From Geosiphon pyriformis uo1 (lineage: Eukaryota; Fungi; Glomeromycota): a DNA stretch of 64,000 bases. The position numbers were made by a program, and so were the translations under genes. The notes under the pieces were generated by a model. The model did not search any database and was not told the DNA's origin. It saw nothing but the letters and a program-made list of their open reading frames with translations. This document shows positions 15,223-44,981 of the stretch, piece by piece (within the stretch, counting starts at the first letter, position 1; each line of letters starts with the position of its first letter). The stretch is taken from positions 1-64,000 of the forward strand of contig JAAOMT010000710.1 of NCBI GenBank assembly GCA_016748015.1, given 5' to 3'.

Positions 15223-16068
15223 TATTATGAGTAATTATTTGGGGTGTTGAATCAAATAACAAACCTGTAACTTGGTGCTAAAAGTTATTTGTGTTGATGT
15301 AATTAATCTGAAGGTTTTGTATCTGAAGGTTTTAGGTTGAGTTCTTTGTATAATAGACAGAGATTCAATAGTTGTTTTATCCATAGCTTCCCAGAATCAC
15401 AATTCTGTTAATTCTTCTCTCGGCATGATGGCCAGCAATCCTCTGGTAAGTATTTTGTATCTTCTGTATGTGTTCTACCCTCTTGCAGGAGTCTTTTACC
15501 AGACAATCCTTAATGTCAGTAATCTAGCACTTTATTCAACCAATTAGTACACAACAATAAAATCAAAATAAAATAAAGAAAAAAAATAAAAGAAAATCAT
15601 AAATAAGCCAAGACAATTTTGCAAGTCAGTATCTTATCAATAGCCATGATCAAGAGCTATTGTTCCAGTGTGTTTAAGTATCAATTACTATTAACATGGA
15701 GTGTTGATAGTGGAATTAGGTTTGAGATACCAAATAATTATTTATTGTATTTGGAAGATTGTCTAAATGAAATCTAAACTTAGAAGTCTGTCTTTTTCAG
15801 CTTTTAATACTACTGCTATATATACATAATTGAGATTTCTCAATTTTTCAATTCTTCACAACAGAAATCCTGGAATTCCTGGAATCCTGCAATTCCTTTG
15901 AGAGGAATCCTGGAATTCTGGAATCCTGCAATTTCTCGTGAGAATCCTGTAATTCCTGAAATTCTGCAATTCTTGAAAAGAATCCTGGAATTCCACATTT
16001 TACTATGTCTACTTTTGATTGGCTAATAACTATGCTAATATATATTCCCTATATTTCTATGAGTAACA
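15223..16068 (-). repeat. 3' LTR of element 1 (846 bp)
   Basis: T(A/G)TTA...GTAACA termini. Matches 24513-25248. Carries a GAATCCTG(G/C)AATT tandem array at about 15863-15995. Confidence 0.95.
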
Positions 16069-16083
16069 TTATTCCCTTCTTTT
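16069..16083 (-). promoter_or_regulatory. Polypurine tract of element 1
   Basis: AAAAGAAGGGAATAA on the minus strand abuts the 3' LTR. Confidence 0.85.
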
Positions 16084-16741
16084 AATATTGAGCTCCGTTG
16101 AAATCTAACTCTGTTAATTCTTTTTTTTGAAGTATTTCCTGAATTTCATTTTCGAAAATTACTTGTGTTATTTAAGTCTGTAATTCTTCAAATTGAGTGT
16201 TGATGATCTTTCCTAATTGATTACTGATAACCATGTCTATTGCTTTGTTGAGTAAGATTTCTGATCAATCCTGAAATGCTGTGTGTATTCAGTATATGGC
16301 TTGGGTCTGTGTGGATAAGTTGTTTTTTCCCACAAAATGTTCTAATTGTTGTAATATTCTGGTGTCGAATAATCACTTTGTTTTATCCGTATATAGATTC
16401 TGGATATTCACATGTTGTCCCAAGTAAAAATAACAATAGTTTCTTGGAAATTGTTGTATCCACCAATTCCAAGTTTCTTTAGTCAACTTTTGGTATAGTG
16501 ATTCTTTTGTCGACTCTTTTATTGCTAATTTTACTTTCACCATGATTTTGTCAATGGTATTTTCTGTTTTCTTCTGTGTTTTATGTGATGATGTCTTTCT
16601 AGTGTCTTGATATCAGATGGTTTGTTAATTAATTGTAATTTCCATCTCTTGGTGTTGAATCAATTGAAAGAGTTGTTGTGCTAGTGAGTGGATGTTGTCT
16701 GTAATTTCTATTTTTCTAATATTTCTTGTTGCATCTATCAT
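16082..16741 (-). pseudogene. Element 1 ORF3 (about 219 codons, unknown helical protein), homologous to 36072-36779
   Basis: One frame with only CGA/CAA-type stops: MIDATRNIRKIEITDNIHSLAQQLFQL...YCYFYLGQHV...AIY*IHTAF...LGKIINTQFEELQT*ITQVI...LDFNGAQY*. Confidence 0.8.
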
Positions 16742-18138
16742 GTCTTTATATATTCTTTTAATGAATTAATTAACATGTTGTTGTCAATAATGATAATTGG
16801 TTCCAGATCTCATGGAATCTCCTCTAGTTGGACTAGTATCTTCTGTACTCCTAATTGTGGAATATTACTGGTGGATGGTGGTGTGATGTTGTGGTATGAT
16901 TTCAGTCAATCTCTATGTGCTGCTTTGGTTAAAATTTTGTTATCTAGTCTTAATTTGTAAGCTCCATTTCCTAGAATTTCTTCTATGTGAAATGGTCCAT
17001 CCCATTTGGGGTCGAATTTTCTACTTCATTGTTTTTCCGCTTTAATATGATGTAAAAGTACTTTGTCTCTAATCTTGAATTCAATTGGTTTGTCTGGTAG
17101 TTGATTATCATGTCTTTCTTTTTGTTTTTCTTGTGACTTTTGTATGTTATTAGCTGCTCTTCTTTGTTTGTTTTCCAATGTTTTCATTAAGTCATATGTT
17201 CTTCTTAACAATGTCTCTTGGAAATTCTCTTTTATTATTGGTTTAATTAGATATGTGTTAACCTTTATCTCAACTGGTAATGTTGCTGTTCTATCATATA
17301 TCAATTCAAATAGTGTTGCTTGTGCAGTGTCTTGCTTCATTGTCTGATAAGCAAATAATACTGATGCTATGAACAAATCCTATTCATCCTGGTTTTTTTG
17401 GCTGAGTTTTGCTATTGCTTCACACAATGTTCTATTAACTAATCTATTGGTTTGTGGATAGTATAGTAATGATAGTGGTCTCTTAATTCCAAATTTTTGG
17501 CTTAGTTCTGCTAATGTTATATTCACAAAATGGGTTCCTTGGTCTGATAATAGTTCTTTTGGACATCTATGTTGACAAATCAGATCTTGATGGACGAATT
17601 TGACAATGGATTCTGCATCTGCTCTTTGAATTGCTTTGGCTTCTGGCTATTTAGTAAGATAGTCCATGGCTACTGCAATATATCTGTTGCCTCTGCTGGT
17701 AATTGTCAATGGTCTGACTAAATCAATTCCAATGCAGTCAAATGGTTGTCCCACTTTGATTGGTCTCAATGGTTCACTGGGTCTTGTTCCTCCTCTTTTT
17801 TAACAAGTATTACAATTTTGCATATATTGAATGATGTCTGAATACATTGATGACCAATAGTAGCTCTTTTTGGTTCTTTCTATGGTTGCTTCTTTATGAA
17901 AATGTCCTGCAGCTGAATCTGAGTGCATGTTGAACAGTATTGTTTCTTTTTCTAGTTCTGTAATTACTCTAATTGGTTGATCTGAATCTTTTCTATTTTT
18001 CCAATAAAGTATATTTTGGTGAGTGATAAAATATTTGGATTGTTGTTTAATTCTCTTTTGTTCTGGTTGAGATAATTTCTCCTTGAACTGTTGAGTATCT
18101 ATATAATGTTGAAGTTGTTGATATTTTTGTGTGTTCAT
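16738..18138 (-). pseudogene. Element 1 integrase, apparently a separate ORF
   Basis: MNTQKY start. HHCC (MHSDSAAGHF...CNTC). IGIDLV and SDQG core motifs. C-terminal WDGPF (GPY/F). No chromodomain. Confidence 0.88.
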
Positions 18139-18199
18139 TTTTTGTTATATTTTCGTGAGTATTGTTTTGGTTTTGTTATATTTTTGGGTTGAAATGTTT

Positions 18200-21100
18200 T
18201 TAGATTTGTCTTATTCATGACAAACCATCAGCATTTCCATTGTCTTTTCCCTTTTTATAATGTATGATATAAGTATATGACAAAAGTGCCATTTTCCATC
18301 TTGACTGTCTGTCATCTCCAAATTCTTGTTTCTGGAGTGATGTCAGTCCTTTGTGATTTGTATACACCTTAAACTTCTGGCTTAAGTATTTTTTCCATTT
18401 TATGACTGCCCAATAGATTGCTAGATGTTCTAATTCTGGTGTTCCATAATTCTTTTCAGCTAGAATCAAACCTCAGCTGGCATATGCAATTGGATGTTCT
18501 CTTCTATCCAATCCTCTCTGAGATAGTACTGCTCCCAATGCTTGACCTGATGCATTAGTGGTGATAATAAATGGTTTACTATGATCTGAATAGATCAATA
18601 CTGGAGCTTGAATAAGCTTTCTTAAGATATTAAATGCTTTTTGCTGGGTTTCAGTCCATTCATACTTTGTATTTTTGGTTTGAAGATTATTGAGTGGTTG
18701 TACTATCTTTGAAAAGTTCTTTATGAAGTGTTTATAATAGCTTGCAAATCCCAAGAATAATTTCAGCTCGGTTACATTGGTTGGTATTGGAAAGTTCTTT
18801 ACTATCTCTATTTTTTCCGGATCTGTTTTTATGCCATCTTTGCTAACTATGTGTTCCAAGAATTTTAGTTCTGTTTTGCCAAAACACTTTTTTGCATTTA
18901 ATTTTAATTCTGCTCATTATAGTCTTTTGAACACTTGTTGGAAATAACATAGATGATTATTGAATGTTTTTGAGAACACATTAATGTCATTTAAGTATAT
19001 AACTACTGATTTCCACAATAAACTGGTATACACAATTTCCATTAGCCATTGGAATGTAGCTAGAGCATTGGTTAAGCCGAATGGCATAACTTCAAACTCA
19101 AAGTTTCCCTCTCTTGTGGTGAATGCCGTTTTTTCTTTGTCAGCTGGATTTATGACTATTTGCCAGTACCCACTATCTAAATCTAATGTTGAGAACCATT
19201 TGTTTCCATTAAAAGTGTCAAATAGTTCTTGTATCCATGAAGTTGGATAGCTGTTTCCACAAATTACACCATTGAGTTTCCTGTAGTCTACACAAAATTG
19301 GATTTTTCCATTCTTTTTACAGACAAGTACTACTGGTAACAACCATGGGCTCATTGATGGCTGAATTAACCCATTGTTAAGCATTTAGTTGATCTCTTGA
19401 TGAATGATTTCATGGCTGGCTGGTGGTATCCTATATGCTTGCTGTTTGATTGGCATTGTATCTCCAGTTTTGATCTAATGCTGAATAATATTAGTTCTGC
19501 CAAATTTGTTTTCATTGGTGAAGATGTCATTGAAATTATTGAGTAACATCTTTAGTTGCATCTGTTAAAGTGAGTCTAGATTTTCCATGTTTATCTGTTC
19601 TAATTGTTCTGACTGTAATAGATAACATTTGTTTCATCCATAGATGGTTTGTGATGTAATGTCCACATATTTACAAAGCTGTGGAAAATCTGGAATGCTG
19701 CTTGGTGCTTGATCTTCAATTTCCATGGTTAAATATCTGAGAGTAGTTTTTTTTGGTATTTCTACAACATTTCCAGTGTTGTTGTAGATGGGAATTTTGA
19801 TATGATTATGATTCTTGGCTGGTATGTGTAGATTGATAAGTCCAATTTCTCTTGATTCACAAAGGGTTGCTTCTGCTTCAAGAATCTGTTCTTGCTTCTT
19901 CTCTCTTTTTTCTATTGCTAACATGTATTGGCTATATGGTAGAATGGAAATTGTTTGACTGGTTGAAATAATTTTTTCTTGGCCAATAATTTTTTCTTCC
20001 ACTATATTAACTGATACATCTATTCTACCTGTAGATCCAAATTCCTGTATTCCTTTTGCTGTTATCCCTAATTCTTCTTTGTTTCTCACTGACACTAATT
20101 GAGCTACTTTAACCAGAGGCAGAAATATTGCCTGTGCTATTTTTTTATTTGGCTCTATAATATAGGTCTTTTTTGAGTTATTTTGTAGCATGGCAATGAT
20201 ATTTCCTACATATTTTGTGTCAATTATTCCTCCTTTTATATTTATCCTTCTTTTCACTAGACTACTCCTAGATGCTAATTGAATCATTGTTGTTGCCGGA
20301 ATTTTCAGTGCTATTTTCAAATCAATGCAGGTGTGTGGATGTGGTTCCAATTGGATGGCCTCTTTTCCTGGATACCTTAAATCAAACCTGGCATTAGTAT
20401 CATGCATGTGTTCTGGCATAATATCTTCATTATTATTGCTAAATCATTTAAGTTCCAGTTCCTTGATGAGGTCAGGAAGTGCAATATATTGTTCATAGTC
20501 TGGATTAGAGTTTAAATCTGAATTGGAATTGTTGTCATTGTTATTGCCATATTGAATAGAGCTGGAACCAGTGTTTTCATCGTCATCATTATTGGAGTTT
20601 GAATCAGGATTAAAAATCAATTCCAATTCTGATGCACAGCTGCTGATTGGTTCTTCTTTTTCTGGGATTGTGTAGATTATGTGTGGTGGTAGATTGTAAA
20701 TGAGGTCACACTCATTACAATATTGGAAGTTACATGGAATCAAACAGTGGTCACATAGTCGAGTGTTTATTTCTTCCAACCATTGCTCTTGTTCTTCTCG
20801 AGTAGGTGCCAACCATTGATAATGCTTGTAGAATTCTTCTGGATTGTTCTCAATGTTGCCAAATATATCAAACGTTAGGACGTATTCAGATTCAAGCAGA
20901 GATAGGGGGTTGTTTTTGATTTCTAGTAGTTCACTGGTTGTCACACCTTCTGCCTTTGCATTCATCATTCTCCAGAGTTTATGTTTGTTGTGTGAATATC
21001 TTTCCAATCATCATAATGTTTGTTTCCAGGCATCATCAATTGGTGTTCTCTTGCATACCCAATCATTGATTAGTATCATATACTGGCAGGTTTCATCACA

Positions 21101-24100
21101 TGTTCCTCCTCTCCCAGGAATGTTATTCCACATTCCTTCGTTGAGAAGAGTTTCCCCACATGCTAAACATAGTGTATTATCCCATTTTCCTACTCGTTTT
21201 GGTCTTTCAAAGTGTTCGACAAGGTATGCATGACAATAGAACTTAGTTGCCATCTGGTATTCTTTGTTATCGCCACAGCAGACACTCATTAATGACAATT
21301 TTTTGCCTCAATCGATGCATATAAGCTTTGGTCGGCGATAGCTCAATAATTGTGGTGGTATATATGTATAAAGAGTGTAACTGGCAGTTGGTAGTGGCTT
21401 CTCTTCCTTCATTTTTCCTTTCTCTTTTTTTCTCTTATCCCATCCCCAAATTGGTGGTTCTTCTAAGTCATGGTTGGTGTCCTAGACTTGATCTGCATTC
21501 CAGGTAGGTTCTGTTCTCTTTTGTTTTTCTTTGCCATTGTCATTTTATGAGAGTATTGGCAGTAGCTCGTTGTGTTTTTCGTCAGTCCATGAGACTTGAT
21601 ACGCTTTCCAGGTAGGTTTTGGTTTTTCTTCTTTGAGGTTAATTAGTGGTGCTGTGGTGTTGGTAGCTTTAAAGTGACCACACGTTGCTGGTACTTGCGT
21701 GTGTTGACTATTCTGGCTGAGTACTAATTCTTGAGTCATCCAATTGAGCACAGTGTTAGTTTTGGATAGCCAGTTATTATCAACTAACACTTGATATTGG
21801 GTGGCTTTTATCACCAGAACTTTAATGGGTACTACGATGCCATTGACTTCAATTAGGAAGTCATCAATTTCACCAATTGGAGTTTTGGTGGCTCTATCTA
21901 CAGTGATAATCCTGGTGCTGGCAGCACAATCAACTTGGTGACCTAATTGATCCATGAGTTGTTGTGTGATGATGCTGTCTGCTGAACCACTGTCAAGAAT
22001 TAATTTGATGAAGTGGCCATCAACCTTGGCATCAATGTACATAGCCATGATTGGTTTCTCTTCAAATGCTGCTCCACTGAATAATGGCGTATCTGATGAT
22101 TTCTCAAGTTTGAATAGGAAGATGGCATCCAAAAATTCATTTTTGGTGATTGTAGCAGGTGGAATATTATTGGTAGGTGGTTGTTGTTGTTTGATTCTCT
22201 GATTGCTGGAGGTGGTATCTTCTGGAGTCATCAAAAAACTTAAATAGTGTTGAGAATTCGGGTTTTAGGTGGGATCGGTGCCCAAATTCTACTAACAAGA
22301 TCTTGATTGTTGGTGAGAAGAGCTGGAAATTGGTTGATGTACAACCATCACCGATCTCCAGTTTTGGATGATTCTCAATCTTGGGTTTCTTGATGTCATT
22401 TGAATTGGATTTGCTGGTGGTGTTTGAATGGTGGGTGTTTGATAGATTGCTGGTGGCTGTGGTTGATATATTATTTATGGCTGCACCTGATAAATTGCTT
22501 GTGGCAGTGGTTGATAAACTGGAGTTTAATAAACTGGCAGTTGATAAATTGGTTGGTACATCATAGGCAGATAAGTGGGTTGGTATTGGTCTTAATTCAG
22601 GTGATGGTTCAGAGTTTGAAACTGGCAATCGGGGTTTCTATATTAATTTCCTGGTCATAGATTGCTATAAGTATGGCAGTTGGCTCTGATGTGTTCTTGT
22701 TTATCACAGTTGTGGCAGACATGCATCTCTGGCTGCCATAACTGATTGGATGATGATGATAGATGTGACTGATTTTGGAAACGATTTGCATTTCCCTGAT
22801 TGTTATGCCATTGAGAAGATTGATAAATTGTGTGATTGTCAGCTAAGTATTCCTCTAATTTCTGATTAATTGAATCACTGAATTGCTTCAATTTAGAATC
22901 CAATTCAGATGATCCATTCATTGCTAGATTCACAGCTTGAGCATGATTAGCTTCTAGTTCAGCTGCTTCAAAATCTTTGGCGTATGTGACTGTGGTTGGA
23001 AGATTTACTGGGTACATTGGACGTACTTGTTGTAGGATGCTACTGCACAATTCTCTAATAAATTGATTTAAAATCTGTGGTGCTGTGAAATAGTCAGCTT
23101 GGATGGCTTGTATTTGGTGTAGATTTCTATGGAAGCATCCCAAATAGGTAGTGACTGCTTCAGTGTCTCCTTGTTTGATAGTTGTAAAGATATTGGCTAA
23201 TTTGTTAATACTATTATTGTTGTTAAAGTACTGCAAGAATTCAGTTTTGAATTCATTAAAATTTTGGGGTTTGACAGCAAGGCTTTAATATCATGCATCA
23301 GTAGTATCCTAGAGAAAATAAGGGATTGTTTGCATTGCTCTAGCATTATTTCAATTATCGACTGTAATGGCTTTGGCCATGTCATTTAACCAGACTTGGG
23401 CATAATTTTCTTTACCATTGAATTTGTCAAGTTTTACGATAGATGCATAAGCCATTTGTTGTTGCTGTGATGGTAGAAGTTGTTGTTGTTGTTGGGATGG
23501 TACTGGTGGCAGTTGTTGATTTTGTTGGTTCAGTGGTTGGATGGGCTGGCCAATTGGTTCAATGGGTGGTTGATTGATGATGATAACTGGAGATAAGTAT
23601 TGATTAATTACTTCAGAGTTTGGATTGTTCTGATTTGGTGGGGTTTGAATATTCAGAGTGTTATTTTCTGAATTGTTTAAATTGGGCTGGATTTGAAAGT
23701 TTGGGGTTTTAATTTCCGGGTTTTTTAGGATCGGGTTTTGGTAAGTAAATTCTTAATCCTTAAATTCTTCTTCCTCTTCTACTTTTTGTTCTCCTTCCAA
23801 TTCAGTAATTTCCTAAGAACTCACAATTCTGAAATTTGGTTGAGGTGGTGGTGATCAAAATCCTGATGGCATCAGTGATCAAGATTTAAATTCTTCAAAA
23901 TACTTGCCATATGGTCCTAGTAGATCCTCTTTCTTTTGTTTATTTTGGAATAGAAAACGTCCAAATGCTGATGTCACATTTGATGTGGATGCATCTGTTG
24001 ATAATATATTGATGGCACTTCTAAGAATATAGTGGTAGGATGGGTTGTTTAGGAACTTAACTCTAGTTTTCTTCCAAGTAAGTGGTTGTATCTTTTGAGA

Positions 24101-24451
24101 TGTTACTGCTGGTGTTTGTAGTTTTCCTTTGTCTTTACTTGTATAAGTAATTGGGTATCTTTGTTGTGTGTGGTGTTCAATTTCTTTGTTAATCTCAGTA
24201 ATAATGGATGCAAAATTATAATTTGTGGATAGGCTGGTGTTTTGAATTAATTCATTGTAAAAAGTTTCTCTTACTGATTCAATATTCATAGATGTTTCCA
24301 ACAGATAGACAATCCTTTCATTGACATAGAAATTGAAAGCTGATTTTGCTGATATGTAATTATGGATTAATCCCAAATGTTGACAGTAATGTTGAAATAA
24401 GAATTTCGCGAATCTTAGATGGTTTGCTTCAATGTTTTCTGATTCTGCCAC
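18200..24451 (-). pseudogene. Element 1 Gag-Pol: extended Gag, CCHC, protease, Cys-rich domain, dUTPase, RT, RNase H
   Basis: All fragments from 23879 to 18215 share one frame. Motifs: CHNCDKQEHIRANC, LILDSGS, dUTPase, FCVDYRKLN, MPFGL, YLND, TNASG, ADGLS. Confidence 0.92.
20020..20419 (-). other. dut: dUTPase domain of element 1
   Basis: ARFDL (motif I), ASRSSL (II), GGIIDTKYVG (III), KIAQAI (IV), KGIQEFGSTG (V). Confidence 0.9.
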
Positions 24452-24494
24452 TTTTGGATGAGGTTATTGGTGCTGGTTCTTTGTAGGATTATAT

Positions 24495-24510
24495 CTCACA
24501 GGAAGCACTA
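24495..24510 (-). promoter_or_regulatory. Primer-binding site of element 1
   Basis: T(A/G)GTGCTTCCTGTGAG 2 nt inside the 5' LTR. Its complement CTCAC.GGAAGCAC(C)A resembles a tRNA 3' end, possibly Ile-UAU; identity unverified. Confidence 0.75.
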
Positions 24511-24512
24511 AA

Positions 24513-25248
24513 TGTTACGAGTAATTATTTGGGGTGTTGAATCAAATAACAAACCTGTAACTTGGTGCTAAAAGTTATTTGCATTAATGTTATTAATCTG
24601 AAGGTTTTGTATCTGAAGGTTTCGGGTTGAGTTCTTTGTATAATAGACAGAGATTCAATAATTGTTTTATCTGTAGCTTCCCAGAATTGCAATTCTGTCA
24701 ATTTTTCTCTTGGCATGATGGCTGGCAATCCTCTGGTAAGTATTCTGTATCTTCTGTACATGTCCTACCCTCTCACAGGGGTCTTTTACCAGGCAATCCT
24801 TGATGTCAATAATCTAGCGCTTTATTTAACCAATTAGTGCACAACAATAAAATCAAAATAAAATAAAGAAAAGAAAAGAAATAAAAAAAAATTATAAATA
24901 AGCCAAGGCGATTTTGCAAGTTAGTATTTCATTAATAGCCATGATCAAAAGCTATTGTTCTAGCATGTTTAAATATCAATTACTATTAACATAGAGTGTT
25001 GATAGTGGAATTAGGTTTGAGATACCAAATAGTTATTTATTGTGTTTGAAAAGTTGTCTAGATGAAATCTAAACTTAGAGATCTGCCTTTTTTAGTTTCT
25101 AATACTACTGCTATATATACATAATTGAGATTCCTCAATTTCTCAATTCTTTACAACAGGAATCTTGGAATTCCACATTTTACTATGTCTACTTCTGATT
25201 GGCTAATAACTATGCTAATATATATTCCCTATATTTCTATGAGTAACA
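24513..25248 (-). repeat. 5' LTR of element 1 (736 bp)
   Basis: TGTTAC...GTAACA termini. Lacks most of the tandem array found in the 3' LTR. Confidence 0.95.
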
Positions 25249-27599: not shown

Positions 27600-29013
27600 A
27601 ATTAACTCTAGTTTGCTTAACAGAAAAGAGAGTATAGGTGTAATAAAGCCAATAAAATGTGCTATAATTATAAGATCTTTGTAAACTTTTACACTTTTTC
27701 CAAAAAAAGACATATTATTGACTGTGAAAATTTTGAATCATTGAATGCTAATAATTTTTACTATATAAATAAAGACAAAAATGTTGGTTTCTTATATAGC
27801 AAAAGCTACAAAAAAAAGCAGAATTGCTATTATCTTGTGCATTGTTCAATATCTAATGGATGGGCTGGCATTTGACTATTATTTAGAATTCCCATATGAT
27901 GCCAACAGTTTTGGATTGTAGTTGTTGTTACTGCTAACCATGCATCAATTAGAAAGTCAACTGCATCTTTTAATATTACTGTTGATATTAAAATCTTGCC
28001 ATCATACTGATTAATAAGATGGAAAAAAAACAACTTTTGGTATTGTGCCTTAAAGGATGCAATAATTCTTGCATCTAATGGTTGCAAATGGGATGTTGTA
28101 TTGGATGATAGGTATCTAATCATAATATTAGATAATATGGAAGATTCTCTATCATAGAAACCAGCATTATCAAGCAATAGCAAAATTTTTTTTTTCTTGT
28201 GATGCATTTCTTTATTTAATAAATTAAGCCATTCACTAAAAATATCGGTTCGCATCCATGCTTTTGTATTGTAACAATAAGTGATTGGAAGTGCATTTAT
28301 ATTAATATTGTAAAAACATCATGACTTTGTGGCTTTGCTAATAATCTTATGCAGTTTCTCTCATTCCTCTGGTAAAATTTCCAAGGAGACACTGTTTGTT
28401 TCATTATGCATCTTAATGTGGTGCAAATTATGATGTTTTTTGAACTTTTTTAACTAATCATCTGATGCTTTAAAGTTATTTTCTTCTGGAAACTTTTTAG
28501 CAAACTTGAGGGCTTTTATTTGTAAAATTTTTCCAGTAAGAATGCAGTTGGTAGCTAGTGCTCTAGCATCTATTCTCCCAGTGCATCATTTATCTTCAAA
28601 AACATCTCTTTCCTGTCCTTTGTCAATTGACCAGAGTTGCCAGATACATTTTTTTCAATCCATTGGTCTGATTTTGTGAATATCTTTGTTACAGTAGAGC
28701 AGTCAACTTTTAGATTAAATATTTTGATAAGTCTATTTGCTGATTAGTTAGAATGCTCTAGTTTGTACTGGCAGAAAGCCTTTTTAGTCTCCAAGGAGAT
28801 TGCTGCTTGCTTTTGGTTTGTGTTTTTTGGCATGTTAATAAGAACACACTTTTTATTGCATTTTGCTTTTATAACACATTGATGTATTTATTATGTCTCA
28901 AATGTTATTTTGCCTTATATCTAATCAGACATATGAGATGTCTTATGTTATATGAGGTGCTTCAGATTATAAAAAGCAGCCAAATTATAAAAATAAAGGT
29001 TTTAATCCAACTG
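27600..29013 (-). mobile_element. Degenerate pogo/Tigger-like (CENP-B/DDE_1) DNA transposon
   Basis: WMRTDIFSEWL...ILLLLDNA...NTTSHLQPLDARIIASFKAQY...IQNCW (27830-28255). Upstream CENP-B-type HTH remnants at 28430-28810. TA|CAGT terminus at 29013. Other end uncertain. Confidence 0.75.
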
Positions 29014-31400: not shown

Positions 31401-31402
31401 TA

Positions 31403-33628
31403 GTGCTAAGAAAAACTATTTTGGATAAACAATTTTTTTACTTGGTTTTAGTTATTTTACAGCTCATTGTCAATTATCAAATGCAATTTAGTTTTGTTTC
31501 ATTAGATGTGTATTACAAGTAGGATGTTATAATTAGGAAGAATCTTAAAGCAAAGACTAATTTGTTTTGCAATTTTTCCAATAAAGTTTTGCATCATTTT
31601 TCTTTGTATAATTTGAAATCTTTTAAACAAGTACAGTTTAAAGAGAAGCTGGCTTTACTAGTTTTTTTTTCTAATGCCCATGGCATTTTTGAGTGATTAT
31701 TTGAACATAGGTTTTTAGATTTGCAAGTTTTGAGGTGGTCTTTTTTGAATCCTTTACAGTTTTTTGTCAAGTTGCATATTAGCCCAGTAAATAATTTTTT
31801 GGCTGGTATGGTAAAAATTTTCTTGGAAAACAAATTGTCTTTGATAAATAATTTGTTCAATGCTTTTTAAGAGCCTGGTAGGTTTTTAATGTTTGGTATC
31901 TTGAAACAACTTTTATATTATGATTCTGTTTTTTTTTAAAGTGGTTTGGTATTGCATTTAGTGACAGACTTTTAGACAAAAAAGAAAAAATAATAGACTG
32001 GAAAACATTTTGGCAGTGAAAAAGATTGGATTTAAGGGGCCTTATATTCTACTGGTTTATGTTAACATCTAAATTTATGAACAATAATGTTTTTATGGAG
32101 ATTAAGTTTGCTGTTGTTTCCAATTTACCTGTACTAAATGTCTGAAAATTTGAAAAATTCTCTAAGATACATAGTAGTTTATTGAAAATTTGGTCTGATT
32201 GCTTTAAGATCTATATAGATAGTTTTTTAAAAGATGCTTGTTCTGCTAATATAACATGTAAAGCAGCTGCTTATTTTCTAGTTGTAAGCATGAATATTGG
32301 GATTAAAGTAGATAAACTTTTGTTTTCTACTTTAGCTAAATTACAGGCTGTTACTTTGGCTTTAAAGTGTGTTCTATTTTCATGTGCTATAATTTTGTAT
32401 TTGAACAGCCAATTTACAATTAATGTCTATATGGCTGAGATTTTATGTGTTGTGTCTGATTTTTGCAATCAATGCTGGATAGAAAAATTGCATATAGTTA
32501 ATCTTATTAATGATAAAAACATTTTAGTCAAGTGGTTAAGATTAAAGATTATTTAAAGATTTCAGACAATATAAAGACTAATGTGTTGGCTGGTAAGGCT
32601 ATTTCATCTTTCTTTTTTTTGTTAATTGGGATTTGCAAACAGTTTTTAATGACTAAAAATACAGTTGTATTTAATAATATTTATTATTTTGTATGTAATC
32701 TGTATTAGTTGATTTGTCACACTCATTGAAAGACTAGTCCTAGTTATAACATGGTTTCAAGTGTTATGGTTGGGGAGATAGATTGAGCTATTACTACAAT
32801 AGTCTGCCATTTTAATTTACATATGCTCTCTGAATTCATTAGTAGAATTTTGGTTAATTTGCATATATATTTGATTAAAGTAGTATATAGATGGCTGCCA
32901 TTAGCTATTAGGAAGAGATTATATGACAAGAATTATTCTGAGGTGTTGTGTTTGCTATGTGGTAAAGTTGAATTGTCTGACCATGTTTTTATTTGTGTTA
33001 GTAATATTAGTCTCCATGAAAATATTTTGGCTAAGATTACTAGAAAATAGGTATTATTGGCTGGCTCTTTTTGTTTACTTGTTTCTGTTATTTCGCATTT
33101 ACTATTAATATATTCTTTGGACATGGGTTTGTACACTACAATTTGCAAGGGTTTTGTGTTAAGGAATTGGTTTACTAAAGCTGTTTTGATTTTCAACAAA
33201 AAAAAAAGCTGCTCTAGCTTTTATTAAATATGTTAGATTTATGGTAGAGTTATATCATACTAAGATGTGGCTTATTTGGTCTAAACAAAGAGTGGATATA
33301 GAAAGAGCTGGATTAATTAGAGATAATGATTTGGTTTCAGGCTTGTCTTACTGTGTGATATTTATTTTGTCAAATGGAATAATTTGTATGTTTGGTATTG
33401 TAAAATCTTTTGCTGTTAGTTTTGGTAAGCACAAATTGTGTTGTTTTTTTTCTGGTTTGAATGATAATGTATTTGTTAGTATAAATATATAATATTGCCT
33501 TGTTTGGTCTGAATAACTGGCTACATATAGTAAGAGCATAAGCTATATTTAGTTTAAACCACTTAATTTGGATCTATGTACTAAATAGCAATTGGGCTTT
33601 ATTTATTAAACATTATAATAAAAAAAAA
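31403..33628 (+). mobile_element. 5'-truncated LINE B (ORF2 C-terminal half, 3' UTR, poly(A))
   Basis: IYIDSF RNase H remnant, CLLCGKVELSDHVFIC, shared 3' UTR and poly(A) near 33617-33628. Confidence 0.88.
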
Positions 33629-33786
33629 TTATCATAAATAGCTTTAGAATTCTAATAACTTAAATTAATTATTCTTTTTTTATTATTAAAAAATTTATAA
33701 GTAAAGTTTAATTGTTATTTAATACATAAATCCAAACTAAGTGGAACAAACTAAATACAATTTATATTCTTATTACATATAACCAG

Positions 33787-35118: not shown

Positions 35119-36091
35119 TGTTACTGGAGGTTTTTGGTCTTTTTTCTTGAATGTTGTAAATATTTGTTGGTTGCAAATTCACATTTTCTAGAAGTAGTTG
35201 AATCTCCAATAACTGAATTTATCTTCAAATTATCTTCTATAATTTGAACTTGCTGGGCTTATAAGTAGAATGGCCAATTCCTTGCCAGTTACTTTATGTA
35301 GTTACATTGTAGTAAATGTCAACTCTTTCTCAGAAATTGCTCATCTGAAAGCTCACTAAAAATGTGTAGTTACTTTGCTGTAAAAGTCAACTCTTCTACA
35401 GAAATCTCGTCTGTAGGCTACCCTAATGATTATAATAAGAAAATAAAAAAAAAGTAAAAAAAAAGTAAAAAAAATTGAATTCTGTCAAGAGAAACATTTT
35501 CTATCCAGGCCTGGAGTCACTAACAGTTTACTGAAATTGGTAGCTAATCAATTTCAAAATGTTAATTGGGTTTTGAAGATTTTCCAAGTACAATAATTAA
35601 AGAATTTGGTTTTTTAAATTATTTGATATTTATTTCTTTTTTTGTGTGTAGGAATGGTTTTAAGTGATAAATCTAAAGTAAAATACATTTTCTTGAAGAG
35701 AAAAGCTCTTCTTTTATACAACTTGTTGTAGTACTAGTCTATGGACTTGCACTTTTTCTCTTTGCTCAAATTTCGGCAAACTAAAGATACATTTTAATGA
35801 ACTACAAGTTATTTTGCTGAACTATTGATTAATTTGGATGAACTATTCATAATTTCGGCGAATTTCTTATAAATTTCGGCGAATTTTAGAATGTTACAAA
35901 GTTCAGGGTATTGTGTAATTTGATCATTCTACTTTCTGTCATACTAATTGGATTATTTAATTAAATTGTGATATGTGATAATTGATTAAATAATAAGTGA
36001 TAATTTGAAATGATATTAATATACTAATTAATTTATAGAAATTATAAGGGTAATTTCATGCTAATTGATAGCTAAAATTCTACTGGTAACA
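35119..36091 (-). repeat. 3' LTR of element 2
   Basis: TGTTAC...GTAACA termini. Matches 44041-44981. Confidence 0.95.
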
Positions 36092-36779
36092 TAATCTCTT
36101 CCTTAAGACTGAGCTCCATCAAAGTCCAAGCACTATCTGTGATATTGAGATAGTGATCCAAAATAATTGAAGTAATCTGGTCTGAAAATTGTTGAAATTT
36201 CAGTTCTGTGAGTTTGCAAATGTATTGGATTTTTATTGGTTGCAATATTGGATTTTGTAGAACATTTTCACAAGTATTAAACAAATCATAAAGTCTAAAA
36301 GCTGCTCTAAGTTTGTAGTAAGTGTTTGTTGGTCCAGCTGCTGTTTTAAATTTATTGTGAATTTGTTTTTGTATAGCTTTAGGAGTAAGATTTGTTGCTT
36401 CAAGTTCCAGTTTTTGTTCATAAAGTGTCTTTCCAATGTGAAAGTATTTATAGATAGGAGTGTGTTCATTGTTCTGTTCATTAAAAAGTAGTAAAAGTTT
36501 TTGTTGTATTGTAGCATTCAGTGAAATATCAATAGGGGCAATTAAAAGATTTTTTTCCAATGCTTGCTTTAAAAGTCTTGGTAACTTATTTTCAGAGTGA
36601 CTTCTTGTTTTTCTTCTATAGGAGTGATAGTTCTGTGGATGATTTACTACTGGGGCTGTGGTTTTTTTCTGAATGTAATTAATTTGACTTTTATTAATTG
36701 TTATGGATAAGTCAGGAAGTGTTTTCAAGGCTAACATTAACTTTTGGAATATTTGTTGAATATTTTGGGGAATAATCAT
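36072..36779 (-). CDS. Element 2 ORF3, unknown function (ancestral stop probably at 36103)
   Basis: 235-aa open frame between integrase and PPT. Homologous to element 1 ORF3. An alternative frame ends LDFDGAQS*, matching LDFNGAQY*. Confidence 0.8.
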   Translation of the reverse strand: MIIPQNIQQIFQKLMLALKTLPDLSITINKSQINYIQKKTTAPVVNHPQNYHSYRRKTRSHSENKLPRLLKQALEKNLLIAPIDISLNATIQQKLLLLFNEQNNEHTPIYKYFHIGKTLYEQKLELEATNLTPKAIQKQIHNKFKTAAGPTNTYYKLRAAFRLYDLFNTCENVLQNPILQPIKIQYICKLTELKFQQFSDQITSIILDHYLNITDSAWTLMELSLKEEIMLPVEF

Positions 36780-36960: not shown

Positions 36961-38327
36961 TTATTGTTCTATTATAATTATTGGTTCTAAATTTTGAGAA
37001 ATATCTTCAGGATTAATTAAAGGGGAATGTGTACCAATTTGTGGAATTAATGGTTCAGGATTGTTTTTGGAATAATAGTGTTTTAATCTGTCTTTATGTA
37101 CAACTTTTGCTAGTATTTTGTCATCAAATCTTAACTTGTATAATCTATTGCCTAGAATTTCGTGGATATAAAATGGTCCATCTCATTTGTTTTCAAATTT
37201 TCCACTCCATTGTTTTTCAGCCTTAGTTCTGTGTAAGAGAACTTTATTTCCAACTTTAAATTTGTTGGTAATAGGTGGTAATTTGTTGTCATGTCTTTCT
37301 TTTTGTTGAGCTTGAGAATGTTCGATATAAGTTGCTACTATTCTTTTTTTTCCTTTCAGTGTACTAAGAAGAGTGTAGGTCCTTCTTTGGAGTGTTTCTT
37401 GAAAGTTCTCTTCATTAATTGGTTGCACAGGATATGTTTCTACTGTGAAATTAATTGGTAACATTGCTGTTCTTCCATAAGTTAAATCAAATAGTATGTG
37501 TTTTATAGTATCTTGTTTTAGTGTTCTGTATGCTAGTAACACTGATGGAATAAAAATATCTCATTCCTGCTCAAAGTCTGTTGAGACTTTGGCTAGAGAT
37601 TCACACAATGTTCTGTTGAAATGTTCTACAAGTCTATTTGTTTGAGGGTGATAAGGTGATAATAGAGGTCTTTTGACATTGAATCATTCACAAATTTCTT
37701 GTATTAAGTTGTTCACAAAATGTGTTTTTGATCAGATAAAAGTTTAATTGGACATCCATGTCTACAAATAATGTTTTCATAGATGAAATTTGCTACTGAT
37801 TTTGCATCTGCTCTTTGGATGGCTTTAGCTTTAGGCCATTTGGTGAAATAATCTACTGCTACTGCAATATAGCAATTTCTTTGGGTTGTGATAGGTAATA
37901 GTCTGACTAAATCAATTCCAACTTTGTCAAAAGGTTGTCCAACTTTGATTGGATTTAAAGGTTCTGTGGGGCGAGTTCCTTCTTTTCTTTGACAACTATC
38001 ACAAAATTTTACATATTGTCGAATGTCTTTTTGTATGTGAGACCAAAAATAATGTTCAAGAGTTCTTTGAATTGTTCCATCTCTTCCCAAGTGTGCTGAA
38101 GACGGATCTGTGTGCATGTTATATAAAATTGTTTCTTTTTTATTCTCTTGTACTAATCTGAATGGTTGGTTTGGGTTTCTGTGATTTTTATAATAAATTT
38201 TGTTGTGGTGTATGAAATATTGCTTTGATTGGTGTTGTAAACAATGTTTTTCACTTGGAGACCAATTCTCTGGCATGATAAGAGTCTCCAAATAGTTTTT
38301 AAGATTGCTGTAGTTTTTGGGATCTAT
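36961..38327 (-). pseudogene. Element 2 integrase
   Basis: MHTDPSSAHLG...CDSC, VGIDLV, LLSDQ, DGPFY. Ends LEPIIIIEQ*. Confidence 0.88.
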
Positions 38328-38384
38328 TGTTGTTTGGTTATTTTGTTGGTAGGTTGGTAAGTTATGGTGGAATTGTTGTTGGTA

Positions 38385-41300
38385 TTAGTCTTGTCTCATT
38401 TTTGAGAGGCTATCAACATTGGTGTGTAGTTTTTCTGGTTTGTGATGTACAATGTATCTGTAGTCTGCTAGGAAGTCATTCCATCAAGACTGTTTGGTAC
38501 TTTGTTCAGTTTTCTTTTTATTAAGCCATTTGAGGCCAATATTGTCAGTTATTATGTCAAATTTTTTTTTATTCTTCAGGTATTGTTGAAAATGTTTAAG
38601 AGCCCAGATGACTGCAGTGGCTTTCAATTCAGTTGAGCCATATTTGAGTTCTGTTGGCTTGAGTGTTCTACTGGCATAGGCAATGACTTGTTCCTGGCCA
38701 TTTTCATTCAATTGTGATAAAATAGCACCAAATGCTATGTATGAAGCATTAGTGGCTAATTGGAACTGTTTGTTGAAGTCTGAGTAAGCAAAAACTGGGG
38801 CTGTTGTCAATTTTGTTTTGAGAATTTCAAAAGCTTTTTGTTGTTTTTCAGTCCATTTGTATGGCACGTTTTTGTTGGTAAGATAATTGAGTGGTTTGGC
38901 AATTTCTGAGAATTCTTTTATGAATTTTTGATAGTAAGAGGCTAATCCTACAAATTCTCTTAGTTCTGTGGTATTTCTGGGGGTTTGAAAGTTTTTGACA
39001 GCACTGATTGTTCCTGGATTTGGTTTGACTCCATCTTTACTAACTATGTGTCCAAGAAAGATCAAGCTTGTTTTTCCAAAGTAACATTTCTCAATGTTTA
39101 ACTTTAATTCTGCTTTCTGTAATTGTTAAAAAACTTCTCGCAGGTAAATGAGGTGGGCTTCAAAGCTTGGTGAGTATACATCAGTATCATCAAGATAGAC
39201 AACTACTGATTGCCATAAAAGCCCTTCATATACAACATCCATGCATTGCTGAAATGTTGCTGGTGTATTACAGAGTCTAAAAGGCATAACATTGAACTTA
39301 TAGTTTCCTTCTTGAGTAGTGAATGCTGTTTTGGGTCCATTTTGACTTGCCAGTATTCACTTTTCAAATCTAAAGTTGAGAAGAACTTGGCTTTTCCTAG
39401 AGCATCTAGCATGTCATTAATTCTTAGAAGAGGGTAGACATCTCCAATTGTAACATTATTTAGTTGTCTATAATCAACACAGAATCTGATTTTTCTATTT
39501 TTCTTTTTAACTAAAACTACTGGTGAGGCCCAAAGACTTCTTGATGGTTGAATCAATTCATTATTGAGCATTCTTTGGATCTCTTCTCTAATGAATTGGT
39601 GGCTGGCAGATGGCACTCGATAAGCTTGTTGATGTTTTGGTGGAGCATTTCCTGTATGGATCTGATGTTGAACAATGTTCGTTTTTCCCAAGTCATTGTT
39701 GTCTTTGCAAATATATCTGCAAATTCAGCTATTAATTGTTTTAATTGTCTTTGTTGTTGAGATTCTAAAAGACTCATGTTGATTTGAGAGAGTTTTTCTT
39801 TTAAAATGTGGTAGTTTTTAGTGGTGGAAATAATATTTGGATTTGGAAGTAGAGTGTGCTTTACAATTTCAATGAAATTAGAGACAATTTGAGGATTTTT
39901 ATCTTGAAAGATATTGCTGTGTATGATTCCAATTTCTAATTTGTTTAATAAGACAATAGGGTAATTATTGGGGTTGTAGAATATAACTCAAAATTTTTTC
40001 ATTTCTTTGGGAATATAAATGTTTGGAATTGATATTTCATCCTTCAAACAAATTTGTTCATTGGATTCAAAGATTTGTTGGGTAGTAGTGGGTTTTGAGC
40101 AAGTGTAAATTTCATGATGTTCTCCAAAATGTGAAATGATAATTGGTTGTAGAAGTTGAAGAATCTGGTGAGATTCATTTTATATATTAAGAGCTATGTT
40201 TACTGGAACTGTAAATCGTCCAGTTGAACCAAAACCTTGCATTCTTTTTTCACTTTTTCCCAATTGTTCTCTGTTGTTAACTGATTGTAAACCCGAAATA
40301 TTAATTAAGGATAAGTAAATTGCTTGAGTGATTTTTTCAGCATGTTCAATCTTGAATGGTTTGTCTGTTTCATTCTGCAACATGATGGTAATGTCTCCAG
40401 TGTATCCTGTATCTATAACTCCTCCTTTAATATTGATTCCTTTGCTTGCCAATCATAATTTGGAGGCAATTTGAATCATTGCTCTTGGTGGTATTTTAAG
40501 AGCAATTTTGAGATTGATTTTTGTCAAGGACTTTGGTTGGAAAGCCAAAGTATCTTTTCTTGGGTATCTTAGATCATATCCAGCATCAATTTTGTGTGCT
40601 TTTTCTGGTCTGATTCCTTGGCCATGGTTGTCAAAATATTTAAGTTGTAGAGATGGTTGCTTTTTAAAAAGATAGATAGAGGTGGTTGGTAGTTCTTCTA
40701 CTAGTTCAGATACTCCAAATTTGATTTTATTTTCATTATTCTCATTTGGCAGAGGAATGCTAAGAGCATAGCATTCTAAACACCATTGGTCATCACAAAG
40801 CATGATGCATTTTTCATATAATTAAATGTTTATTTGCTCTAATTGTTGAATTTGAGCTTCTTTGGTCAGATATGTGTGGCTTGCAATTTGGTGATATGTT
40901 TCTGCTTCATCTTCATAATCAAATCCAGCTAATTCTATGGTGTACTCAATGTATTCAGCTTCTTTTATTTGGCGTACATCTTCTTGGGTGGCTCCATTGA
41001 TTAAAGCCATTGCTAAGTTAAAAATCATTTCAGCATCATGTGGGTAATGGTATAGTTTGTTGAGAACACTATTGTATACTGCATTAAATGGTGTTTCTCT
41101 TCTCACTTTTTCCAAAATTGATAGAGCATATTGACAGGTTTGATCACATACTCCTTCTCTCATTACAACATCAATTCAGTTGCATTTTTTTGATAACATA
41201 TTTCCACATGTAAAGCAAGGTGTGTTGTACCATTTTTCACTTCTTTTTGGAGATCCAAATCGTTTTCTATAGCATGCTTTGCAAAAGTAACAGGTACAAG

Positions 41301-43995
41301 TTTCATATTCCTCTTCTGGAAAAATACATGCTCCCATTGATGAAAGTTTTTTGTTGCAATCTTTGTATTTGAGTAAAATATAGGGTGGTTGTTTCTATAG
41401 TTCTGGTGTAGAATATCTAACTTTCTTTCATCCTCTTGATTCTTCAAAAATCTCTTGTTCTGTTTTCTCAGTCCAATTGGATGTTGATCTAAGTGCCATA
41501 TAGGTTTCAGTAAGTGGTATTTCTTTCTCCTCTTCATATTCAAATACTGGGGGTTTTTCTAATTGTTTGTTAAAAGTACCACAAGTAGCAAGTACTATAG
41601 TGTGTTGTCCTTGGTATGAGATTTTTAGTTCTTGAGTTTCCCAATCTAAGTTTGCATTGGCTTTAAGAAGCCAATTATTTCCAACCAGAGCTTAATATTG
41701 GGGTGTATCTATGACTAGCACTTTGACTGGAATGGTGATTCCATTAATGGTGAATGGAAAATTGTCAATTTCTCTTACTGGTGTCTTTTTCATACCATCT
41801 GCTATAACAATTACAGTTTGGGCTGGTCTGTCAACAGTTCTTTAAAGCTGCTGCATTAACTAATAAGTGATAATACTTCCAGCTGATCCACTGTCTAGAA
41901 TTAATTGGATGGGTTTTCCTTCTACTGTAGCTTCAGTATACATAGCAGTAATAGCTTTTTGTTCATTAACTGCTGTATTACTAAGCAAAAATGGTGATTC
42001 ATTTGCTTCAAATTCGAATGGAAATATATTTGAAAGGTTGGCATTTTGAGCAATTTGAGCTAATGAAATGGTATGGTTGGAAGGATTTGTTCTTGGTACT
42101 GTAGCTTCATCTTTAGAAAGTGCAGTTTGTTAAAAATTCGATTTTTCAGTCATTGTTAAATAACTGGGTTGAGTGTGAAAGTAATTTGGTTTTTGCTGAC
42201 CAGAATTTTGGGGAACTAATTGGTTATTTGGGTTGATTCTATTGTTTTTATTCTGAAATTGATTTTGAGATGTGAATTGGTTATGTTGAACCAATTTTCT
42301 GGCTGGTACTTAATATTGTTGAAGGGGTTGTGTCTGATATTGCTGAATTGGTAAAGGTTGCTGATATTGTTGCTGCATTGGTTGTGGAGCTGGTTAATAG
42401 TAATTGTTTTGATTTTGGGGTCTTGGTGAATAATAATTTGGTGGTGGAGGTTGGTAATAGGATTGTTGTGGTGAAGAATAATGTTGATTACTCCTATTTT
42501 GTTGGTTTCTTTGTAATTTCCTACAATCTCATTTCCAGTGTCCTGGAATTCCACAATAATGACAATTTTGAGGTTGGTTGTTGGATGGTGATTCGAAATT
42601 GTTTTGGTTGCATCATTGTGGGGGTTGATATCTTTGTGGTTGTTGTTGCTGTTGTTGTTGGTTTGTGAAGTAGCTTTCAACCTTCTTTGTAAGTTGGTCT
42701 ATCTTCTCTTCAGCTGCTGAACTGGTTTCTCCAATAGCTAAGTTGACAAGTTTGGTGTGGTTTGCTTCTTCCATAGCCATTTCATAGTTCTTTGCATGTT
42801 TGATGGTAGTTGCTAAGTCTGCTGGAGCATGTGGGTGGACTTTCTTAATCAGTTTGTCTTTTAACCTTGCTATAAACTGGTCCAGAATCTGAGCATCAGA
42901 ATAATAATTATTGGTTTCCAATTGTCGAATCCATCGAAAAAGTTTGTTGAATCTTCTAAGATAAGTCATAACAGTTTCAGATGTTTCTTGTTTGATATTG
43001 CAAAAGTGATTGCGGAGAGTAATAGAGGTGTTGTTGTCAGTGAATTGTTGTAAGAAAGCATCTTTAAATGCTTGCCAGTTTTTAAATAGTTTTTCTAAGT
43101 TTTCAAACCATTCTTCTGCAGTTCCTTGGAGAAAATATGAGATTGCTTTAAGCATTTTTGCTGCAATCCAATCATTTGCATCTCCTGCTTTTTGAACTTT
43201 GTCAAGCCATTTTTGAGGACTGGTATGATTATCTTCACCAGTAAATTCTGGAATCTTTGCAATGTAAGCAGTTGTCATTTTTTTTTTGTTTTCTGTGATT
43301 TCTTTTGGTTCTGATTCAGTTTCTTCACTTTCCAAGCTTTCTGAATGATTACTTTCGTTTTCCTGTAAGTAATCAATGATATTGGCACTTGTTGATATTG
43401 GTTTTTGTTGTTGAGTAGGATTTCTAGGTAACTGAAAATCTTCTGGTCTGGAGAAATGGTTAAGTAGTGAACTTGGTGTTTGTAGTTGAACAAGTGAAAT
43501 TGGAAATGATGTAATAGAAAGTGGTAATTTGACACTGGTTTCTTGTTCAAGTGTTTGCAAGTGTTTGGCAGTTGTTTTTGGTAGTATTGGAGTGTTTGGA
43601 ATGGTTCTTGAGTATTGTTTTACTTTTTGTTTGCCTTTGTTACTTGTCTCTGTTTCTAATTCAAAGTTAAAAGAGTATTTGGGCTGTACTGGATATTTTT
43701 CTTTACAATACTCGATAATATTAAAATTAAGTTCTTGGAAGTAGGTAGCAAGTGTTTCACTGTTCAGGTCTTCTGTTCCCAATTGTGAATAGTGCACTAA
43801 ATTATTGTAGAGGTTGCTTTTAACTTCTGAAATGTTGTAGTTTCCAAAAAGATAATTGTTGATGCAATTTTCAATATATTGGTATACTGATTTCTTGACA
43901 ACTTCAATTCCGTCTGGAATGTTGAATTTTTGCTTACAGTGGGTGTAAATTGACTGATGATATTCTAGAGTTGTTGTGTCTGGTATGGTTGCCAC
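38385..43995 (-). pseudogene. Element 2 Gag-Pol: extended Gag, CCHC, protease, Cys-rich domain, dUTPase, RT, RNase H
   Basis: IPEFTGED capsid start, CHYCGIPGHWK*DC, ILDSGSAGS, dUTPase, FCVDYRQLN, YLDD, ATNAS. Confidence 0.92.
40210..40620 (-). other. dut: dUTPase domain of element 2
   Basis: DAGYDL, IASK, GGVIDTGYTG, KITQAI, RMQGFGSTG. Confidence 0.92.
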
Positions 43996-44040
43996 TTTGA
44001 ATTTGTTGTTGCTGTGTTATTTCCATGGGAAAGCACTAAA

Positions 44041-44981
44041 TGTTACTGGAGGTTTTTGGTCTCTTTTTTTGAATGTTATAAATGTCTGTTGGTTGCAAAT
44101 TCACGTTTTCTAGAAGTAGTTAAACCTCCAATAACTGAATTTATCTTCAAATTATCTTCTATAATTTGAACTTGCTGGGCTTATAAGTGGAATGACCAAT
44201 TTTTTGCCAGTTACTTTATGTAGTTACATTGTAGTAAATATCAACCCTTTCTCAGGAATTGCTTGTCTAGAAGCTCACTAAAAATATGTAGTTACTTTGC
44301 TGTGAAAGTCAACTCTTTTACAGAAATCTCGTCTGTAGGCTACCCTAATAATTATAATAAGAAAATAAAAAAAAAGTAAAAAAAATTGAATACTGTCAAG
44401 GAAAACGTTTTCTATCCAGGCCTGAAGTCACTAACAATTTACTGAAATTGGTAGCTAATCAATTTCAAAATGTTAATTGGGTTTTGGAAATTTTCCAAGT
44501 GTAATAATTAAAAAATTTGGTTTTTCAAATTATTTGATATTTATTTCTTTTTTTGTGTGTAGGAATGGTTCTAAGTAATAAATCTAAAGTAAAATACATT
44601 TTCTTGAAGAGAAAAGCTTTTCTTTTATACAACTTGTTGTAGTACTAGTCTATGGACTTGCACTTTTTCTCTTTGCTCAAATTTTGGCAAACTAAAGATA
44701 CATTTTGATAAACTACAAGTTATTTTGCTGAACTATTGATTAATTTGGGTGAACTATTCATAATTTCGGCGAATTTTAGAATGTTACAAAGTTCAGGATA
44801 TTGTGTAATTTGATCATCCTACTTTCTGTCATACTAATTGGATTATTTAATTGAATTGTGATATGTGATAATTGATTAAATAATAAGTGATAATTTGAAA
44901 TGATATTAATATACTAATTAATTTATAGAAATTATAAGAGTAATTTCATGCTAATTGATAGCTAAAATTCTACTGATAATA
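44041..44981 (-). repeat. 5' LTR of element 2
   Basis: Near-identical to 35119-36091 apart from transitions and short indels. Confidence 0.95.

Follow-up and report, generated by a model that had tools for sequence, protein, structure and literature searches.

A conserved gypsy-related genome plan with a separate integrase gene and a small helical third gene in Geosiphon pyriformis and soil metagenomes

Introduction

Genomes of the Metaviridae have been described as gag-pol, gag plus pol, or gag plus pol plus env, with the integrase located inside pol and env as the sole third gene (PMC7879559). Here, we describe two elements, E1 and E2, which depart from this plan and lie in a 64,000-nucleotide stretch of contig JAAOMT010000710.1 of the fungus Geosiphon pyriformis uo1 (assembly GCA_016748015.1, positions 1 to 64,000; hereafter the window). 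Both resemble Ty3/gypsy elements in their long terminal repeats (LTRs), primer-binding site (PBS), polypurine tract (PPT), a Gag with capsid and zinc knuckle and the order protease, reverse transcriptase (RT), RNase H and integrase (IN), but their integrase has a gene of its own, and the third gene, open reading frame 3 (ORF3), is not env. Since the integrase is not a domain of the pol gene, E1 and E2 are gypsy-related variants rather than canonical members of the Metaviridae. Unlike the third gene of errantiviruses and other env-bearing elements, ORF3 encodes no transmembrane or surface domains; in contrast to the Retroviridae, both elements lack a tether domain, a second RNase H and env; and, unlike in the chromovirus branch, the integrase C-terminus carries no chromodomain.

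Single traits of E1 and E2 are known from other systems. According to the accessible part of PMC2836005, an N-terminal YPYY motif occurs in Ginger1 and in gypsy integrases including Gypsy-1-I_RO (Rhizopus-coded), DGLT-A1 and Athila/Tat. The E1 and E2 integrases share with these the unit of about 400 amino acids (aa) and the succession of motif, zinc finger, DDE core and GPY/F; their motif is equated with YPYY by its pattern and position. Ginger1, compared here by description only, likewise has the integrase as its own gene, but in the part of that description at hand it was found in animals, is bounded by terminal inverted repeats, carries OTU/Ulp1 tails and lacks an RT, whereas E1 and E2 have direct LTRs and an RT. 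A dUTPase between protease and RT is known from fungal, rotifer and planarian LTR retrotransposons (PMC6431247, PMC2774666); the available sections of these sources describe no separate integrase, and in the group reported here the dUTPase is patchy. Coupling at UAAUG or AUGA has been documented in viral RNAs, and reinitiation in fungal viruses and SART1 (PMC10275272, in excerpt). SART1, CHV1, HvV190S and the caliciviruses resemble our elements in such junctions between long ORFs, which work in fungi, but none of them is an LTR element in the excerpt; unlike in these systems as described there, most junctions here hold a spacer of 30–160 nt, and no helper RNA element was identified. The animal lineage Troyka was considered as a distinct LTR lineage whose name hints at a three-part plan, but was rejected: in the portion of PMC12440569 available, it is confined to animals and has CG..CG termini, 3-bp target duplications, mostly a single Gag-Pol including the integrase and no GPY/F, whereas E1 and E2 have TG..CA-type termini and 4-bp duplications.

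In the searchable literature, outside of which lie Repbase, Repbase Reports, GyDB, REXdb, subscription journals and supplements, we found no description of a layout with a separate integrase, and the accessible parts of PMC3248453, PMC2774666, PMC13465315 and bioRxiv 2021.03.30.436303 do not mention one. The genome plan is conserved and real, and it is apparently undescribed within a known kind of element. There is nevertheless an appreciable chance, if somewhat below even, that it has already been noted somewhere, e.g., in Repbase entries for Rhizopus or Rhizophagus elements.

Results

E1 (25248-15223) and E2 (44981-35119) both lie on the minus strand. In E1, Gag-Pol terminates with TAA at 18202-18200 and the integrase begins with ATG at 18138 in the +1 frame; in E2, the TAA is located at 38387-38385 and the integrase starts at 38327, which reads ATA in this copy. 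The spacers between them are nearly devoid of G (1 G in 61 nt in E1, 0 in 57 nt in E2). When 396 contigs of one sequencing run were aligned to the E2 junction, eight places varied at or above the threshold of 8%, none of which affects the stop codon; at the integrase start, 40% of the contig depth (40 contigs) read ATG. This run may derive from the window's own sample, so that the contigs represent a family consensus and not an independent host. A collapse of the family into a single Gag-Pol-IN frame, which the preliminary description of this DNA had considered, is contradicted by the absence of any variant of at least 8% in this stop.

A profile search with the integrase, limited to proteins of 26–802 residues, gave 2181 matches, of which 120 listed ones were analysed. 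Among these, 102 begin with MD, ME or MN at exactly the register of the window elements, in three a short extension precedes a Met at this position, and 15 begin further downstream; as the length limit leaves out fused forms, these counts speak for a fixed start and not for an absence of fusion. Among longer proteins, a search yielded five matches, the best two being stand-alone integrases and the other three fused proteins of 31–35% identity. Several of the stand-alone integrases are intact-looking proteins of Rhizophagus irregularis from several assemblies. The integrase ends about 70 residues past the GPF motif, near a PIIIE-like tail, and the best solved relative of its profile is the Ty3 Gag-Pol (7q5b, E 3.7e-51).

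Relatives with the same layout were found in metagenomes, where the scan covered 7 of 64 parts and the best 80 of 560 confirmed loci (L001 onward) were considered. Among the best 34 of these, 16 have an upstream pol ORF (in L009 only the pol tail), and in 16/16 it is split from a Met-started integrase; in the other 18 no pol ORF is visible, mostly for lack of upstream DNA. Below rank 34, L058 is a seventeenth split locus, about 13 loci are fused and the remaining ones either decayed or too short. Across the 17 split loci, the Pol-IN gap ranges from -11 to 727 nt and involves all three frames, and in 10 of them a second stop in the integrase frame follows the Pol stop, so that no single readthrough or frameshift could join Pol and IN there. 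The LTR-bounded L023 (435-bp terminal repeats, 96.8% identical) and the terminally repeated L005 hold the complete plan with pol, integrase and ORF3 open. The N-terminal motif is also present in fused relatives (L035, L042, L064, L071, P0123). Scans of viral contigs gave no match; the group is seen in Glomeromycotina fungi and soil metagenomes. L005 additionally contains a fourth ORF (L005:7404-8255, 284 aa, coiled-coil-like) between integrase and ORF3.

The two window elements are composed as follows:

24513..25248, minus strand: E1 5' LTR, 736 bp, flanked by the TCAT duplication
24452..24512, minus strand: E1 PBS-like site and 61-nt leader
18200..24451, minus strand: E1 Gag-Pol frame with candidate GTG start, 30 decay stops and terminal TAA; N-terminal helical extension, capsid, zinc knuckle, protease, Cys-rich domain, dUTPase, RT, RNase H
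18139..18199, minus strand: E1 Pol-IN spacer, A38 C13 T9 G1, without AG
16738..18138, minus strand: E1 stand-alone integrase ORF, ATG start, +1 frame to Pol, 6 decay stops; YPYY-like N-terminus, HHCC, DDE core, GPF motif
16082..16741, minus strand: E1 ORF3, 6 decay stops, start Met uncertain by about 8 codons
16069..16096, minus strand: E1 GGAGCTC motif and PPT
15223..16068, minus strand: E1 3' LTR, 846 bp, additional short tandem copies in U3
44041..44981, minus strand: E2 5' LTR
38385..43995, minus strand: E2 Gag-Pol, candidate GTG at 43995, terminal TAA; open stretch 44016-42613 (467 codons), frame breaks near 39710 and 39330
38328..38384, minus strand: E2 Pol-IN spacer, 57 nt, without G
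36961..38327, minus strand: E2 stand-alone integrase ORF, start codon decayed to ATA, frame break near 37726
36072..36779, minus strand: E2 ORF3, 235 aa, open
35119..36091, minus strand: E2 3' LTR

LTR pairs (736/846 bp and 91.4% identity in E1, about 941/973 bp and 95.0% in E2), 4-bp target duplications (TCAT in E1; ATGT in E2, assuming that its 5' LTR begins with a decayed TG), Pfam matches and six-frame reading bear out the coordinates, minus-strand layout and domain order given in the preliminary description. Its view that the LTRs of the two elements are largely unalignable also holds, as they share two weak matches of about 45 bp only. Both copies are dead, killed by mutation, since the differences within the LTR pairs are nearly all transitions (62/63 and 46/47) and E1 Gag-Pol contains its 30 internal stops. 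E1 Gag-Pol nevertheless forms a single frame of 2084 codons; the two alternative frames contain 134 and 167 stops. A GGAGCTC motif is found directly upstream of the PPT at window positions 16096 and 36117 as well as at L005:9190 and L023:9147, in differing frames or outside of ORF3, which suggests a cis element. Long structured LTRs had also been proposed, but folding leaves this mostly unsupported, with 0/9 windows below z -1.2 in the E1 5' LTR and 3/12 windows at z -2.0 to -2.9 in the E2 5' LTR, though decay would erode structure. A solo LTR-like copy (44999-45607, minus strand), about 71% identical to the E1 LTRs, lies 17 nt from the 5' end of E2.

Along the elements, Pfam gave the order gag, aspartyl protease, dUTPase (E1), RVT_1, RT_RNaseH and Integrase_H2C2; the capsid matched Retrotrans_gag and Ty3_capsid, and a Cys/His knuckle is visible in the translations. 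The E2 copy of the dUTPase is 50% identical to that of E1 (tblastn), and RT-RNase H is 55% identical. All parts tested are homologous between E1 and E2 when compared with shuffles (z 6.7 to 49), including the Cys-rich domain (z=49), the Gag N-terminal extension (z=6.7) and ORF3 (z=9.9). A single Ty3-type RNase H ends just before the Pol stop, and a candidate PBS, unmatched to a tRNA, follows the 5' LTR, with the PPT preceding the 3' LTR. For the Cys-rich domain, the Gag extension and the Pol tails, Pfam gave no useful match. The preliminary description had counted dUTPase and Cys-rich domain to the shared plan; both are present in E1 and E2, but they are not group-wide, as a dUTPase was found in L058 only (1/8 loci covering protease to RT among the 80 metagenome loci), the Cys-rich domain had no match in the relatives below E 0.037 and the Gag extension likewise none that was clear. 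Gag-Pol is a single frame in L012, while an apparent -1 slippery site joins Gag and Pol in L005, L013 and L015. In L012 (3500-4438), L023 (3361-6702) and L009 (2-541), Pol extends 180–580 residues beyond RNase H with a Cys/His-rich tail at the usual place of the integrase, without a Pfam match for L012. In L015 (1-2916), Gag carries a long Cys-rich repeat array upstream of the capsid.

A GUG start had been proposed for the extended Gag. For E1 this start is plausible and slightly the better guess, because the stretch from the in-frame stop at the end of the LTR to the start of the conserved N-terminal domain of Gag, about 10 codons after the candidate GTG, holds neither an ATG nor an ATA in frame, and because AAAGTGGCA is common to E1 and E2 in this region; alternatively, an AUG would be spliced in. 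The candidate GTG of E2 is followed three codons later by an ATA, which could be a decayed ATG. The proposal does not extend to the group: in L005 and L012 the first ATG after the LTR is in frame with Gag, and in L023 it is out of frame.

ORF3 encodes a conserved family of small helical proteins which is not env, as it has neither a membrane segment nor an env match. For E2 ORF3, 202 relatives at E 0.001 were found among 356 candidates, and all 120 listed ones belong to Geosiphon pyriformis, being gene models of 60–93% identity named hypothetical proteins, which points to this fungus or a close relative as the source of the window; a profile of Geosiphon ORF3 proteins matched 35 representatives, two of them from non-Geosiphon metagenome records. 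Twelve metagenome loci have a related ORF after the integrase (leave-one-out recovery 12/12), and a profile made from these alone gives 18.3 bits for E2 ORF3 and 13.5–16 for gene models of the E1 family, compared with at most 1.7 for shuffled or reversed controls. No ORF3 match was obtained in fused loci, though some end soon after the integrase, or within the DNA examined of L006, L024, L025 and L029. E2 ORF3 crosses the PPT (36106-36092), terminates 20 nt within the 3' LTR and is preceded by an ATG-free 181-nt spacer with a pyrimidine tract and TAG.

The predicted structure is all-helical (predicted local distance difference test, pLDDT, 93; a prediction without alignment reached only 42 and was unused), and among 18 ORF3 proteins of 119–239 aa the highest 19-residue hydropathy is 1.29, i.e., without a membrane segment. 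Together with the single RNase H, this speaks against the term 'retrovirus-like' chosen earlier. Pfam returned 0 matches for the first member and at best 0.011 in single members, which is not meaningful, PDB sequences gave a best E of 0.32, Foldseek against PDB and viral libraries nothing at E 0.001 and a wide structural search helical repeats at a best Z of 5.0; a missing fold match does not establish a new fold. Atlas clusters from Mucoromycota (0.93, 0.91) and of a closterovirus coat (0.92, low recognition score) were treated as chance, and a second Atlas query gave nothing.

Trees were built from RT-RNase H (40 rows) and from RT-RNase H plus IN (31 rows; bootstrap not converged) under LG+G4; the plant protein P0125 is nearly the only named reference in them and the backbone is star-like. 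All trees place E1 and E2 as sisters (100/99-100); they are thus not the two independent lineages assumed in the preliminary description, and the independent evidence comes from the relatives. The split or fused label needs 4 changes on the first tree and 3 on the second, with one change sufficing in 4% and 0% of the bootstrap trees, respectively; the split label is clustered (0/500 shuffles as low).

Apart from E1 and E2, the window contains a little-decayed long interspersed nuclear element (LINE; 54428-60975, minus strand) with ORF1 (weak RRM), an endonuclease-like region, RT and RNase H, older LINE copies (about 7091-10964 and 31399-33631, both plus strand), a probable host gene (49-2127, plus strand) with an intron, a weak septin-like match and a hydrophobic stretch, and a fragment of a DDE_1 transposase (27830-28318, minus strand). 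Furthermore, an inverted pair of 590 bp (30559-31148 and 51104-51690, 86% identical) is located 20 kb apart, and the extremely AT-rich regions 5001-6000 and 53001-54000 (GC 9–10%) are likely end-stage decayed repeats.

Discussion

E1 and E2 belong to a gypsy-related group in which a Met-started integrase follows a true Pol stop and is followed by a helical ORF3; taken as a whole, our analysis slightly favours this layout combined with termination-reinitiation as the likely mode of expression. For this mode itself, i.e., that both downstream genes would be made from full-length RNA by reinitiation, we see about an even chance. Having terminated at the end of Gag-Pol or of the integrase, ribosomes would resume translation at an AUG that overlaps the stop, or reach the next AUG by scanning through a short spacer free of AUG. 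Exact stop-start overlaps occur as TAATG (L005) and ATGA (L058; L008 and E1 at the IN-ORF3 junction), next to overlaps of -8 and -11 nt. Leaving aside overlaps, the two long Pol-IN spacers, L004 and L005, ATG is depleted in 11 short Pol-IN spacers (1 seen vs. 8.3 in shuffles, P=0.0012) and in nine IN-ORF3 spacers (0 vs. 7.0, P=0.0002). Reverse transcription and integration would otherwise take the Ty3 route. A Gag-Pol fusion carries the integrase into the particle at a set ratio, and because of this established packaging biology a free integrase would need its own route into the particle.

Several observations weigh against this reading. The long spacers of L011 (365 nt) and L023 (727 nt) hold 19 ATGs with 18.5 expected, and in L005 1.6 kb including the extra ORF precede ORF3, so that simple reinitiation cannot serve these loci; different members of the group may differ in their translation route. 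Pol and IN overlap at only 4/17 junctions, GTA is likewise absent from the Pol-IN spacers, the ORF3 spacer count is partly circular since the first in-frame Met had been chosen, and ATG-free spacers would be no less expected in the 5' leader of a subgenomic RNA. In L005, L013 and L015, where Pol depends on frameshifting, it is a minor product, so that a restart after it would yield little integrase. As to the group itself, the metagenome-only ORF3 profile misses the decayed ORF3 of E1 and matches only its family members, and the best concatenated tree nests the fused P0123 with 16/17 split elements, with weak support. A single split clade is neither shown nor rejected (approximately unbiased test, p=0.18); of the suggestion of a possibly undescribed clade, the lack of a description in the searchable literature stands, whereas its unity does not follow from the trees.

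Expression of integrase and ORF3 from subgenomic RNAs, either spliced or from internal promoters and comparable to env in errantiviruses, would leave the layout unchanged and is the main, though doubtful, alternative. It would account for the ATG-rich spacers of L011 and L023 and for the pyrimidine tract plus AG ahead of ORF3 in E2 and L012, would agree with the good ATG context of the integrase (purine at -3 in 12/17, G at +4 in 14/17) and would decouple the amount of integrase from the rare translation of Pol. However, the Pol-IN spacers of E1 and E2 have no AG (the G may have decayed), several intact relatives have none within 30 nt inside the spacer, and repeated exact stop-start overlaps are unexpected for separately transcribed genes. 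Internal ribosome entry or shunting on the genomic RNA, aided by the unstructured A/C-rich spacer, appears unlikely: it would be compatible with G-poor spacers (3–20% G in relatives, 0–2% in the window) and with the long ones, but sequence and length of the spacers (-11 to 727 nt) are not conserved, G-to-A decay inflates the G-poverty in the window and overlapping junctions have no spacer at all.

Even less probable is an integrase still made as a Pol fusion by readthrough or frameshifting. A single in-frame stop in E2, L001 and L013, overlapping frames in five relatives and the N-terminal motif shared by the fused relatives would fit, whereas the second stop blocks this route in 10/17 loci, a common frame is missing and the Met is fixed at position 1 in 102/120 listed integrases. 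The heavy mutation of both copies might suggest an ordinary gypsy element with one ORF, in which decay produced the stop and the additional ORFs, but this is the most improbable of the readings and is contradicted by the stop fixed in the E2 family, by open-frame relatives sharing the layout and by the different frame of the E1 integrase. The view that stop, separate integrase ORF and ORF3 form a selected layout is thereby borne out; judged from the fixed stop, the fixed Met and the 17 split relatives, the integrase ORF and ORF3 are supported as selected features of a broad group.

Under the reinitiation reading, our best guess, although with a chance well below even, is that ORF3 serves the split with which it co-occurs, either by recruiting the integrase to the particle as an adaptor or by assisting reinitiation; it may instead have an anti-silencing role.

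A large group with its integrase outside of Pol needs another way to make and package this enzyme, and Rhizophagus, with its intact-looking integrase genes, makes such an alternative route testable. LTR sequences account for 41.2% of the Geosiphon pyriformis genome according to the available part of PMC11952901, and ORFs of the elements described here are annotated as host genes, as seen for the 120 listed of the 202 ORF3 relatives. The group is also a candidate intermediate for the open relationship between gypsy integrases and the Ginger1 transposase (PMC2836005, as far as accessible). More far-reaching, and in our estimate improbable, is an old undescribed lineage combining a polycistronic RNA with chained stop and restart, a new-fold ORF3 aiding the packaging of free integrase and a living link between gypsy and Ginger1. 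If true, this lineage would represent the unfused state before the integrase joined Pol, or the source of an escaped stand-alone integrase gene.

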